A program made the position numbers. A DNA stretch of 64,000 nt from Escherichia phage PA27, in sequence record KP682380.1. One strand, 5' to 3'. The first letter of the stretch is position 1, and the number at the start of each line of letters is the position of its first letter. Shown here one piece after another: positions 12,001-18,000 of the stretch.

Positions 12001-15000
12001 AGCTATTCACTATTGGAAATCTTAAGAAATGGAACAAACAAGTTACAGCAAACTATCACAGCGAGAAATTGATCGCGCTGAAACTGATTTACTCATCAAC
12101 CTGTCAACGCTTACCCAGCGCGGTCTGGCAAAGATGATTGGCTGTCATGAATCGAAGATAAGCAGAACGGACTGGAGATTTATTGCTTCGGTCTTGTGTG
12201 CTTTCGGAATGGCATCAGACATCAGTCCGATTAGCAGGGCTTTTAAGTATGCGCTTGATGAAATCACAAAGAAAAAATCCCCGGCCGCCACCGAGGATTT
12301 TAAGCAAATTGATATGCAATTCTGAGGGAATTACTGGATCAATCCACAGGAGTAATTATGACAAAACAACTCAGTCCTTACCAGGACAAAATTCACAAAC
12401 ACATACTACGTGATCGCTTCCTGTCCAGCTTCAAGCAGCCTGGTCGATTCCGGGCTGAGTTGGAAAAAGTGAAGCTGATGCAGAAGGAGAAAGGTCATGA
12501 GTAACATATCTAATCTAGCCGAAGCCAGAGAGGCAAGAAGGCTACAACAACCGCATCAAAGCAGCGGTAAGGGGTATGCCTTGCTGCACCGTAAAATTAT
12601 GGATGTGCCGTTTTACAAGGACGCAGAAGCTGCGCATCTGTGGGTTCACTTAATCCTCAAAGCAAAGCATACGCCTGAGTATGTAATGACTGACGCAGGA
12701 GAAATTCTGGTAGGCAGAGGGAAGCTACTTGGCGGTAGAAACTCTCTGGCGTTTGAAACAGGACTCAAACCAGATCGCGTTCAGTACCTGCTTAGAAAGT
12801 TCAAAAAACTCGGCATGATTGACTGGGTTTCACACGGTAAATTCTCAGTTTTCTCGGTAGAGAAATATGACGATTATCAGTCAAATTTTGTACCAGCAGA
12901 TTACCAGCAAATTACCACCTCAAAGCCAGCAATACCAATGCCTGCAAGCAATACTGTACCAGCAGATTACCAGCAAATTACCACAGATAAAGAATATAAT
13001 AATATTATCTCTAATACTGACGTATTAGAGAGTGCCACAGCAGACAAAAAGTCTGACAAGAAAAAACCTTCCGTTAGCTGTCAGGATGTTGTCGATGCTT
13101 ACCACGAAATCCTTCCTGAAGCGCCAAAAATCCGCGCACTGAATGACAAGCGTAAAAACCAGATCCGAACGTTCTGGCGCAAAGCCGGAGTGATAACCCG
13201 CCAGCTTGACGGGCATGGGTTCACGATGCAGGACTGGAGAAATTATTTGAGCTACGTAGGCGAAAATTGCCGATGGATGTTCGAAGAGCGCCCAAACCAT
13301 CAGCGCGGAACCGTCTGGCACAAAAAGGGATTTGATTTCCTGCTTAACGATAATACCTACCTGAAAGTTCGTGAGGGTGAACACGATGACCGATAATTTT
13401 TATGCGCCGCCCCATAGCATCGAGGCAGAGCAGGCGGTGATTGGTGGATTGCTTCTGGATGATGACAGCAGTGAGCGCGTCCAGAAAGTTCTGGCGATGC
13501 TGAAGCCTGATTCATTTTACAGCCGACCACACAAAATCATTTTCGAAGAAATAACCAGAATGCACCGGGAGCAAAAGCCAGTAGATGGCCTGACGCTTTT
13601 CGATGAACTGGAGCGTAAATCGTTAACGGCGTCTGTTGGCGGTTTTGCTTATATCGCTGAGATCGCAAAGAACACGCCAAGCGCAGCAAACATCGTTGCC
13701 TATGCAATGCAGGTTCGTGAAACCGCAATGGAACGCTACGCCATCAACCGCATGACTGAAGCGACGGAATTGCTCTATTCCCGCAACGGAATGACTGCAA
13801 CGCAGAAGTACGAAGCTATTCAGGCGATTTTCACGCAACTGACAGACCATGCAAAAACCGGATCGCGTCGCGGCCTTCGCTCATTTGGCGAGGTCATGGA
13901 AGACTGGGTTAGCGACCTTGAGAAGCGATTTGACCCGTCAGGCGAACAACGAGGAATGAGCACAGGGATCCCATCGCTGGACAGGATGCTGTCACCGAAA
14001 GGTCTGGTGAAAGGCTCTCTGTTTGTCATTGGCGCTCGCCCTAAGATGGGGAAAACGACGCTATACAGCCAGATGGCAATCAATTGCGCAGTGCATGAGA
14101 AAAAGCCCGCTCTGATGTTCAGCCTTGAAATGCCAGGTGATCAGATACTGGAAAAACTGGTAGGACAGAAGTCAGGTGTTAACCCGAATATTTTTTACCT
14201 TCCGGCGACAAATGACGCCGATGACGGCTATCAGGGTGATTACGATGGTGACTTCAACAGGGCGATCGAAACAGCTAATCGCTTGAGTGAAATCGACCTG
14301 CTTTACATCGACGACACGCCGGGATTATCTCTGGCTCAAATCGTCAGCGAAAGCCGTCGAATCAAACGAGAAAAAGGATGCGTTGGCATGATTCTGGTCG
14401 ATTACCTGACACTAATGACCGCTGAGAAGGCCGATCGCAACGACCTTGCTTACGGCATGATCACCAAAGGACTGAAGAACCTTGCCAAAGAGCTTGATTG
14501 CGTTGTTGTGCTTCTGACGCAGCTTAACCGCGCACTGGAAAGCCGAACCAATAAACGCCCACTACCAAGTGACTCACGAGATACAGGGCAGATTGAACAG
14601 GATTGCGATTATTGGGTGGGGATCCATCGTGAAGGTGCTTTTGATGACAGTGTTCCACCTGGTGAAACCGAACTAATCCTTCGTCTCAATCGTCATGGCA
14701 ATACCGGCACGGTGTATTGCATTCAGGCAAATGGCGCTATTTATGACACAGACCAACAGTCTGCTGAAATGCGCCGACGTGAACGCGAGGAACCGCAGTC
14801 CAAGAAGAAAGGAGGATTCTGATGAATAAAAAACAATTAGCCATTCTCGAAAAGGCATGGGATGCACAAATATCATACGCTTTGAAAGAACAGGCACTAC
14901 CAATAATCCAGACCAAATCGAAAATAGCCAGGCAGTTATGCGATGGCGGATTCCTGAACGAAATTGAGATTACGCGCCAGATGGTAACGTTTAAAGGGTA

Positions 15001-18000
15001 TGAGATAAATCATCATGGTATAGCGGCGTATTGCTCCCATCTTCCTGATGACGTTGACATTGATGAAATGGAAAGGGAGATGAAGCAATGACCATCTACA
15101 TCACTGAGCTAATAACAGGCCTGCTGGTAATCGCAGGCCTTTTTATTTGGGGGAGAGGGAAGTGAACGATAGCTACCGACAGTTTGAAAACTGGTGGTCA
15201 AAAGACAAAAGCCAGTTCACGGGAGACGATGAATTAAAAGAGTTTGCCTGGGTGATATGGCAGGCATCGCGCTCTGCTATTGAACTGGATATCGACTGGC
15301 CCGAATCGAATGACGACTTTTGGAAAGATGGTGAAGAAGGTGCTTATGCGATGGGTTATGAGGATGGGCGTGACAAAACGGTAATTGCAGTAATGAAAGC
15401 CATCAGGGCCGCAGGAATCAAAGAAAAGAATTTCGATTAAGCAAATATCACTTCAATAAATCGCTTTTAAGGCATCACAATCGCTCTGTAGCGAGGTAAA
15501 CGCGTGCAAGGCATGCCAATAAGCAGCGAGAATGAAAAATGCGTCAGAATGTGTTTGAGGAGGTTTTAAGAAATGAGTACGATAGCTGAGCTTGTCAGGG
15601 CTAATTTTCGTGAAGAGTTGGTGCGTTGGTATCGGTATCGTTCATCGTCCAGTTTGCCGCTTGATGAGTTGTATGAGCATTCACCTGCCGCACGACGCTA
15701 TCCGCGTGACCGTGTTCTTCGACGGTTGTTCAAACTCAACAATGAGTTTCAGCGCAACAGAATTATCCGGAGTCTGGATTTAAAGTGAAGGAGTGAGCAT
15801 GAGCGACCTATCATTAACCCAGCCAAAGCTAAAAGAATGTCCGTTTTGCGGCGGTAATGCTCGTCTGTGGGTTGAGGCCGGAATAAATATTGATGTGTGG
15901 GGCTATGCAGAATGTGACCTCTGTGAAGCCAGGGGGGCATGGGCACCATCAGTTGCTGCGGCGGCTGAAAAATGGAACCGGAGAGCAGGAGATGAAGCAA
16001 ACCTTTCTGCTTCGCAACGAAGCAATCAGAAATAACGCCATAGACGCCATTCTCTCACTACCCATCGACGACAAGTCACCCCACGAAGTCCACGTTAAAG
16101 AACCCAAGCGCAGCAAAGCGCAGAATGACCGTATGTGGCCGATGCTGAACGATGTTTCGCGTCAGGTGCTATGGCATGGTCAACGGCTGGCGCCGGAAGA
16201 CTGGAAAGACCTGTTCACTGCCCTGTGGCTTAAGACCAAAAAACTGGAGCAACGAAGTGTGCCTGGTATCGACGGTGGCGTTGTCATGCTTGGCGTGCGT
16301 ACCAGCAAAATGCGGAAGGCCAGCATGACTGAGCTTATCGAAATCATGTTCTGGTTCGGCTCAGAGCGCAACGTGCGGTGGAGTGATGACTCCCGGCGAG
16401 AGTATGAATGGTCACAACGAAAAGGTAGGGCTGCATGACTATCAAATCAAATACGCCAGCACACGACAAGGACTGCTGGCAAACGCCGCTTTGGCTTTTT
16501 GATGCACTGGATATTGAGTTTGGATTCTGGCTGGATTCGGCAGCGAGCGACAAAAATGCTCTGTGCGCTCACTGGCTAACTGAGGCCGACGACGCGCTCA
16601 ATTCTGAGTGGGTAAGCCACGGTGCAATCTGGAATAACCCACCGTACAGCAATATCAGGCCGTGGGTGGAAAAAGCCGCTGAGCAGTGCATACAACAGCG
16701 ACAGACGGTAGTTATGCTTGTGCCAGAGGATATGTCAGTCGGATGGTTCAGCAAGGCTCTGGAGAGTGTTGACGAAGTTCGCATCATCACTGATGGACGG
16801 ATTAATTTTATCGAACCATCGACAGGGCTGGAGAAGAAGGGAAACAGCAAAGGCTCCATGCTGCTGATTTGGCGACCGTTCATCAGTCCTCGACGAATGT
16901 TTACTACTGTATCCAAAGCGGCATTGATGGCGATCGGGCAGGGCGTCAGGAGGGCGGCATGAGGCGACAGCGACGAAGTATCACCGACATCATCTGCGAA
17001 AACTGCAAATACCTTCCAACGAAACGCTCCAGAAATAAACGCAAGCCAATCCCAAAAGAATCTGACGTAAAAACCTTCAATTACACGGCTCACCTGTGGG
17101 ATATCCGGTGGCTAAGACATCGTGCGAGGAAAACAAGGTGATTGACGCGATGATTTATTCGGGGCTATATTCCTCACGCGCCAGCAAAATCTGGCGTCGG
17201 GATTGGCGTCCTGGATAGAGACCGCGACAGATACACGCCGCGAGCGTGTTTTTTATTGTCGTATGCACGCGCACATCTGAATTATGGTGGGCTGTGTGGG
17301 GGCGGAGAGATCCGCGCCGGTCGGTTTCCCGGTTACGCCAACCCTGCACAGTTCACCACCAGACGATTGGCGTCGTCGGTGGTGAGTTATTAAGAAACCA
17401 CCAGAGGGCGTCATTATGACAACTCAAATTTCTGTTGAAACTCTCTCCCCGATCACCCATAACCAGATTCCTGTTATTACCACCGAACTTTTGGCGCAGC
17501 TTTACGGCACTGAGCCGGTGCGTATTCGCCAGAATCATCATGAGAACAAAGTACGCTTCGTTGAAGGGAAACACTTTTTCAAAGTTGTTGGTAATGACCT
17601 TAAAGAATTGCGGGTAGCTTTAAACTACTCACAAAATTTGCGGGTTACTTTAAGTAACTCACAAAATTTGCAACCATCTTTAAGAGGGTTACAAATTTCC
17701 CCGAAAGCCCGCTCCCTCATACTCTGGACAGAACGAGGCGCAGCCCGTCACGCAAAAATGCTCGAAACTGATCAGGCGTGGGATGTGTTCGAAAAACTGG
17801 AAGACTGCTATTTCAGCCAGTGCGAGAAAAATACTGGCAAACAAGAGAAGAAGCTCAACGGGCTTTCCGCAAAAGAAACAGACAGCCTTGTATGGCTGTG
17901 GGATTATGCCAACCGCTCACAGGCATTGTTCCGTGAGTTGTATCCCGCATTAAAACTGATTCAGTCTGGCTATTCCGGCATATGCCACGACTACGGCTAT

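Follow-up and report, generated by a model that had tools for sequence, protein, structure and literature searches.

This analysis concerns a cluster of three small open reading frames (ORFs), with the tR2 terminator among them, at positions 14822-15788 of a 64,000-nucleotide stretch of Escherichia phage PA27 (KP682380.1), referred to as a whole as the window. A 1.2-kb query around the locus is 100% identical to phage VT2-Sakai (AP000363, NC_000902), to PA-series Shiga toxin (Stx) phages and to prophage Sp5 (NC_002695); positions in the window equal those in NC_002695.2 minus 1,246,153. The nin region of the Stx2 prophage Sp5, or phage VT2-Sakai, of E. coli O157:H7 Sakai begins at this locus, within the early-right (pR) operon. 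The gene for N lies upstream on the opposite strand, Q and stx2 lie downstream, and O/P-type replication genes are also present in the window. The elements of the locus and its immediate context are as follows.

13371..14822, plus strand: DnaB-type replicative helicase gene 'P' (ECs1190), given for context; its TGA stop and the ATG of ECs1191 share one base (TGATG).
14822..15091, plus strand: ECs1191 (orf28), 89 amino acids (aa), isoelectric point (pI) 5.5, directly after the helicase gene in the 'ren slot'.
15088..15165, plus strand: ninA, a 25-codon hydrophobic ORF (MTIYITELITGLLVIAGLFIWGRGK) matching phrog_5907 and annotated in relatives.
15117..15148, plus strand: tR2 intrinsic terminator, with stem AGGCCTGC / GCAGGCCT, loop TGGTAATC and tail TTTTTATTT.
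15149..15161, plus strand: G/A-rich Shine-Dalgarno stretch GGGGGAGAGGGAA, forming the 3' end of the conserved cassette.
15162..15440, plus strand: ECs1192 (orf29), 92 aa, acidic (pI 4.4), of the PF26207 (Phage_phiTE_015) family, with a phrog_343 match.
15441..15572, plus strand: non-coding spacer of 132 nt, ending in the GAGGAGG ribosome-binding site of ECs1193.
15573..15788, plus strand: ECs1193, 71 aa, basic (pI 10.8), a DUF7301 protein (PF23975, phrog_1785).
15799..16035, plus strand: Lar-like restriction-alleviation gene (ECs1194), given for context and followed by ninB (15992-16438).

An earlier description of this DNA made without database searches (the sequence-only reading) had placed the cluster in the nin region of a lambdoid phage, which the presence of N, Q and O/P-type genes bears out. 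The 89-aa ORF (14822-15091) and the 71-aa ORF (15573-15788) lie where that reading had put them, a terminator stands between the ORFs at the site it named, and a 25-codon hydrophobic frame (15088..15165) does extend over the stem. Its third ORF, of 97 codons at 15147-15440, is correct in frame and mistaken in start and length: translation begins not at TTG 15147 (97 aa) but at GTG 15162 (92 aa), because more than 20 homologues begin there, GenBank and RefSeq agree on this start, and a GGAG-rich Shine-Dalgarno sequence precedes it. The statement that the ORFs hold no recognisable motifs was wrong for two of them, which belong to DUF7301 and PF26207, and incomplete for the 89-aa protein, for which a winged-helix model can be built. 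Profile searches, which had been proposed as a check, assign the ORFs of the locus to Pfam and PHROG families (PF23975, phrog_1785, phrog_343, phrog_2239 and phrog_5907).

The hairpin that separates the ORFs comprises an 8-bp stem (15117-15124 paired with 15133-15140) with six G-C pairs, an 8-nt loop and a TTTTTATTT tail that runs to 15148. It is the best-scoring match of a terminator scan and appears in both the minimum free energy and the centroid structures; terminator-like patterns alone are not significant, with 13 found versus 9.2 expected in 8 kb. Its identification comes instead from sequence identity, since window 15117-15148, covering the hairpin and T-run, agrees letter for letter with positions 1998-2029 of the lambda sequence (L003). 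By this criterion the terminator is lambda tR2 itself and not merely tR2-like. Its place in the pR operon corresponds as well, downstream of the replication genes and where the nin region begins, and the record of phage Nil2 (AJ413274) annotates a 'tR2 terminator' feature. In lambda, tR2 has an efficiency in vivo of ~0.9 with the upstream stop codon at a distance of 30 bp or more and of ~0.8 with 18 bp of native upstream sequence (Li et al. 2016, PMC4824070). In the window, 25 nt lie between the ECs1191 stop codon and the tR2 stem. By analogy with the identical lambda sequence, for which both properties are known, tR2 in Sp5 would be expected to terminate transcription and N to override it.

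The 25-codon frame at 15088-15165 is the only one open across the hairpin, with frames 2 and 3 holding stops. It encodes a 25-aa product that begins MTIYITEL and has a grand average of hydropathy (GRAVY) of +1.22, in which a hydrophobic core is followed by GRGK, and it matches phrog_5907 with an E value of 1.4e-18. The frame is the long-known ninA, named in lambda in 1982, and the same name is used in the records of P22 (M10074), Nil2 (AJ413274) and PA52 (KP682392). At each end it is fused to its neighbours: its ATG overlaps the stop codon of orf28 (ATGA, 15088), and its TGA overlaps the GTG of orf29 (GTGA, 15162). Such ATGA stop/start overlaps are typical of the region, and ninA is counted among the nonessential nin genes (PMC8022706, PMC3349717).

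Together, ninA and tR2 form a cassette of 76 bp that is identical to lambda at 75 of 76 positions, the single difference being synonymous. Lambda shares the hairpin, the T-run, the upstream ATGA overlap, the position after the replication genes and the Shine-Dalgarno sequence at the end of the cassette, which serves the following gene, orf29 in the window and ninB in lambda. The lambda order is ren-ATGA-CCATCTACAT(T)ACTGAGCTAATAACAGGCCTGCTGGTAATCGCAGGCCTTTTTATTTGGGGGAGAGGGAAGTCATGA-ninB. Lambda thus carries ren upstream, ninB downstream and a 26-aa NinA ending in KS, whereas the window carries ECs1191 upstream, ECs1192 downstream, a 25-aa NinA ending in GK and a GTGA overlap. Among Stx phages, Nil2 has the same order and spacing of p (the DnaB analogue), ninA, tR2, ORF29 and ORF30 (the DUF7301 gene), but is without ECs1191, so that its helicase gene leads directly into ninA. 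Phages phi24B and Min27 (Stx phages, as is 933W) carry ECs1191 and DUF7301 homologues with ~98-100% identity; however, in phi24B-type phages ninA, with the tail RVIGGFKK, directly overlaps the DUF7301 start, and neither orf29 nor the spacer is present.

The same cassette is widespread. In the phage collection searched, the block common to lambda, P22, L, phage 21, Sf101 and others corresponds to window 15088-15163, exactly the ORF, with unrelated sequence on either side, and over 100 lambdoid genomes have it, set among unrelated genes. When 122 IMG/VR and reference loci were gathered by the stem-loop sequence alone, the ATG was kept in 118 of the 122, always as ATGA, with at least seven different trinucleotides before the cassette and at least eight different genes after it. 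Across the loci ninA spans 24-34 codons, with a tail that varies with the downstream gene (RGK, RGKS, RVNRG, RGKCG or RVIGGFKK), and where the downstream gene is that for NinB, ECs1192, DUF7301 or either of two others, its start is overlapped by the ninA stop codon. The cassette is therefore a portable adaptor that almost always keeps its ATG and an open frame. Three loci have a variant hairpin (GGGCTATT-TACAC-AGTAGCCC plus T-run), in which the first 32 nt are kept and the frame is open and hydrophobic. In five others, an AT-rich HNH endonuclease gene is inserted within ninA, between codon 11 and the tR2 stem, leaving the terminator intact; intact NinA is therefore dispensable.

The inserted gene encodes an HNH-type protein of 203 aa (L009, 6334-7079; also L138, L145, L154 and L182) and occurs in phages 1717 and Stx2a_WGPS6, with the tR2 terminator directly after its stop codon. 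The cassette, highly conserved as it is, has the look of a homing site.

ECs1191, the gene upstream of the cassette, follows a replication gene in every phage record listed among the 114 that carry it. Its product matches phrog_2239, a PHROG of unknown function, and has homologues in 25 clusters, all from Enterobacterales, with nonsynonymous divergence (pN) of 0.20-0.33 against a saturated synonymous divergence (pS) of 0.78-0.94. Neither Pfam nor NCBIfam contains a match, and the best hit of a profile search of the PDB has an E value of 0.13. The AlphaFold2 model is confident (predicted local distance difference test, pLDDT, 92), with helices at residues 3-20, 34-41, 64-72 and 80-88 and strands at 45-52 and 55-62. 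The model contains a helix-turn-helix (HTH) and a beta-hairpin wing in the topology H-H-beta hairpin-H. The top Foldseek matches in PDB and BFVD are all winged-helix proteins (PadR, MarR, RTP and DnaD-N), though weak (E values of at least 0.014, template-modelling score ~0.5) and at 11-22% identity. The model shares its topology with these proteins, but is much smaller than the dimeric MarR regulators. In four of six independent contexts, an ECs1191 homologue lies directly 3' of a replicative helicase or primase-helicase region; in one distant context, it is found in a PL-type region immediately before a gene that joins PF26207 to DUF551. ECs1191 may thus be a small winged-helix protein, as its model predicts, that binds DNA or another protein, accompanies the replication module and is positionally analogous to Ren.

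The distant context is a Pseudescherichia prophage (L127, 4001-4680), where the ECs1191 homologue overlaps the start of the PF26207+DUF551 gene in a PL-type region with ERF, SSB, MT-A70 and NinX-like genes. The two families found on either side of tR2 in the window thus adjoin one another in an unrelated setting too.

Downstream of the cassette, ECs1192 has 82 close homologue clusters, and a profile search extends this to 442 representative clusters. Its membership of PF26207 is assigned by proxy, as the local Pfam copy was without the PF26207 model: the family is precomputed for clusters P0026 and P0028, which are 97-99% identical to ECs1192, and for nearly all of the 82 homologue clusters. 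The protein is modular, with conserved N- and C-termini and a variable middle, and evolves with a ratio of nonsynonymous to synonymous substitution rates (dN/dS) of 0.34-0.43. Its AlphaFold2 model reaches a pLDDT of only 68, and a fold search with this low-confidence model gave no match below an E value of 3.7. A scan of distant PF26207 relatives for informative fusions returned none besides that with DUF551. ECs1192 is tentatively regarded as an acidic, dispensable accessory protein.

Four ECs1192 homologues (P0043, P0045, P0049 and P0056) share their final residues, ...EANIHASQRSNQK, with the window's Lar-like protein, of which they form the C-terminus (compare 15990-16035). This ending marks a deletion joint at which the spacer, the DUF7301 gene and most of the Lar gene have been removed in those phages.

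The 132-nt spacer occurs in 168 Stx-phage records and stands just before the DUF7301 gene wherever both positions are listed. It has no special structure (fold z-score +0.23) and no Rfam match at threshold; with no promoter-like site on the plus strand either, a structured or small RNA (sRNA) in the spacer was rejected. ECs1193 itself matches PF23975 (DUF7301) with 91.5 bits against a cut-off of 27 (E 3.8e-26), covering 64 of 65 profile positions, and also matches phrog_1785; its conserved core reads YPRDRVLRRL. Homologues fall into 34 clusters, dN/dS is ~0.40, and 182 records in the phage collection, nearly all of them Stx phages, contain the gene. The protein is arginine-rich and possibly a dispensable accessory factor.

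A Cro-like HTH assignment for DUF7301 was also considered and rejected, as a PDB match to P22 Cro (E 2e-7) came from a single chimeric member (P0139) and disappeared once that member was removed. P0139 is a natural chimera in which an N-terminal Cro/YdaS-like HTH half is joined to a C-terminal DUF7301 half (YPRDRVLRRL...).

All three ORFs are real protein-coding genes as judged by their homologue families (25, 82 and 34 clusters) and by purifying selection, with nonsynonymous well below synonymous change, and not by their length. Full-length homologues are conserved in other genera down to 33-55% identity, each ORF starts either behind a good ribosome-binding site or in overlap with the preceding gene, and all three are annotated by RefSeq in Sakai, though the 71-aa ORF is without annotation in NC_000902. 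The characterisation of the sequence-only reading, which took them to be small accessory genes without known function, agrees with these results. Sequence and profile searches of the PDB gave no significant match for any of the three proteins, and comparison with defence and anti-defence families yielded at best 13 bits in PADLOC and no match in NCBIfam. The locus tags, DUF7301 and PF26207 are mentioned nowhere in the searchable literature.

The locus likely represents the promoter-proximal end of the nin region, organised as a translationally linked chain from the helicase gene through ECs1191 and ninA, with tR2 inside it, to ECs1192, followed by the spacer, ECs1193, the Lar-like gene and ninB. 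The steps by which it would operate are modelled on established lambda biology. In transcripts from pR made without N, tR2 would stop the polymerase, so that ECs1192, ECs1193 and everything up to Q and stx2 would need N-modified polymerase. The proposal of N-dependent read-through in the sequence-only reading would hold for the genes beyond tR2; it fails for the 89-aa gene, whose expression would be independent of read-through because it lies upstream of the terminator, and ECs1191 would be produced alongside the replication proteins. Ribosomes that complete ECs1191 on a read-through mRNA would restart at the overlapping ninA ATG and melt the hairpin, before stopping at the TGA that overlaps the orf29 GTG, for which the end of the cassette would provide the Shine-Dalgarno sequence. 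NinA would then be mainly a coupling ORF that carries ribosomes across the hairpin to the next gene, and its hydrophobicity would stem largely from the frame in which the G+C stem and the T-run are read. The initiation site of lambda ninA is described as 'not weak' and is active in vivo in a reporter, where translation from this start cuts tR2 termination by only ~10% (PMC4824070); by analogy, NinA is probably translated in the window as well.

Several points weigh against this interpretation. The ~10% loss of termination on ninA translation in lambda would fit a passive bridge and is no proof of coupling, and the loci interrupted by the HNH gene keep the terminator, such that the ORF may matter less than the terminator. 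The predicted winged-helix fold of ECs1191 comes from Foldseek matches with weak E values (0.014 or above) and has no match to a hidden Markov model, while no function could be derived for ECs1192 or ECs1193 and the model of the former is of low confidence. Reports of expression, termination or read-through for this phage were not found in the searchable literature.

The principal alternative to a coupling role holds that NinA is a functional membrane micropeptide of 25-26 residues, its coding sequence superimposed on tR2, so that selection would act on both peptide and terminator. The composition of the product, a strongly hydrophobic core leading into GRGK, is consistent with this, as is the in vivo activity of its start codon, and both the alternative-hairpin and the HNH-interrupted variants still encode hydrophobic peptides beginning MTIYITEL. 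Outside the hairpin, the 27 nt 5' of the stem show changes at five synonymous sites (seven changes) versus five nonsynonymous changes, all conservative (I/V/M, T/S/A); given an expected synonymous fraction of 0.26, this lean has a binomial p of 0.017 by changes and 0.09 by sites, with counts that are small and not phylogenetically independent. However, hydrophobicity is to be expected from the codons GGC CTG CTG GTA ATC GCA GGC CTT TTT ATT, the C-terminal tail differs freely from one downstream gene to the next, and both a change from L to Q and a truncation to 20 aa occur. The HNH insertion also removes the C-terminal half, and phages with the nin5 deletion or the P22 ninA-ninH deletion are viable. 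That NinA is a genuine, widely conserved lambdoid membrane micropeptide overprinted on tR2 is thus considered unlikely. Were it so, the near-invariant 76-bp cassette would reflect a peptide, an RNA hairpin and translational coupling at once, and a host-directed function of NinA would have escaped forty years of lambda genetics, since phages with nin deletions are viable.

For ECs1191, the competing explanation is that it acts as a functional analogue of lambda Ren, protecting against exclusion such as that by Rex, instead of as a replication accessory or transcription factor. The two genes share the slot between the last replication gene and ninA/tR2 and are of similar size (89 versus 96 aa), and Ren may also be a small winged helix: the Ren homologue of phage Dewey, 43% identical to lambda Ren, gives a weak winged-helix signal (MarR_2, E 6e-4), and lambda Ren itself gives HTH_Crp_2 at an E value of 0.06. 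A single stretch is aligned by hhalign, the putative recognition helix, for which the residue numbers in the two proteins are identical. Homology of sequence was nonetheless rejected, with an hhalign probability of 0.3% and no BLASTP alignment to a Ren homologue, and every winged-helix signal of Ren falls below Pfam cut-offs. The argument from the slot is positional only, and ECs1191 homologues also occur beside the PF26207+DUF551 gene in a PL-type region. A Ren-like role is accordingly improbable.

A further possibility is that ninA/tR2 is a translation-sensing attenuator resembling those with leader peptides, in which a ribosome trailing close behind the polymerase from ECs1191 into ninA would cover the 5' arm of the stem and allow read-through independent of N; the strength of tR2 would in that case be a measure of how closely translation is coupled to transcription. 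The geometry is suitable, with an ORF that extends across the stem and is coupled at its start to the upstream gene, and ribosomes near tR2 are stated to repress termination almost fully in reporters (PMC4824070). As in the trp and pyrBI attenuators, a short ORF overlaps an intrinsic terminator. Those systems, in contrast to ninA/tR2, have an anti-terminator alternative and regulatory codons: at tR2 no alternative anti-terminator pairing stands out (fold z-score -0.58), and ninA holds no regulatory codon runs. A Trp_leader match at 15040-15146 could be read in favour of attenuation, but it was rejected as a family member, with 21.5 bits far under the gathering threshold of 41 (E 0.21), and no Rfam match over 14500-16200 reached threshold. 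The effect of translating ninA on termination is small, as noted above, 18 bp or more of native upstream sequence already gives termination of 0.8-0.9, and the first 100 nt of an ORF have been argued to be too short for a ribosome to catch up with the polymerase (PMC4824070). Attenuation of this kind is very unlikely. The idea that chance alone accounts for one or more of the three reading frames, as their shortness, the want of an assigned function and the unannotated 71-aa ORF in NC_000902 might suggest, is scarcely credible given their conserved full-length homologues, pN well below pS, translation starts, Pfam and PHROG families and RefSeq annotation in Sakai.

Several other features were recorded in the window. 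The Lar-like gene (15799-16035) and ninB (15992-16438) share 44 nt (15992-16035) in different frames. Further along the nin region, Rfam matches to c4-a1b1, isrK and C4 antisense RNA at 17165-17363 on the plus strand lie just 5' of ant (17416-18150), forming an embedded antisense immunity module of the P1/P7 c4/ant type. Matches with identical scores to the ALIL pseudoknot, a frameshift signal of the IS3 family, are found at 19550-19666 and at 26521-26637 (minus strand) and presumably mark copies of an insertion sequence. Additional Rfam matches include the lambda cIII thermoregulator (7898-7956, minus strand), STnc100 next to AsxR, an anti-stx2 sRNA (23582-23841), sok antitoxin RNA (60729-60903, minus strand) and sRNA-Xcc1 (63525-63613, minus strand). 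The tRNA genes are offset by ~1.3 kb relative to the NC_000902 phage record.

Every element of the locus has already been sequenced, annotated or assigned to a family, and the arrangement is ordinary, with nothing new in it: the locus follows the lambdoid textbook, the prophage is among the most heavily sequenced, and the region in itself matters little. Small proteins with no assigned biochemical function are typical of many phage early genes and would not surprise a specialist; ECs1191, ECs1192 and ECs1193 are among the many uncharacterised early genes common to Stx phages. Three additions can nevertheless be made. The first is a confident winged-helix model for ECs1191, together with its recurrent placement after DnaB-type helicase genes; the second is a count showing the ninA/tR2 cassette to be a portable adaptor between many different genes; and the third is a mild synonymous bias in ninA, which would be compatible with a functional micropeptide. 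The relevance of the locus to toxin production is indirect: production of Q requires N to override a set of terminators that includes tR2, and expression of stx2 depends on Q.

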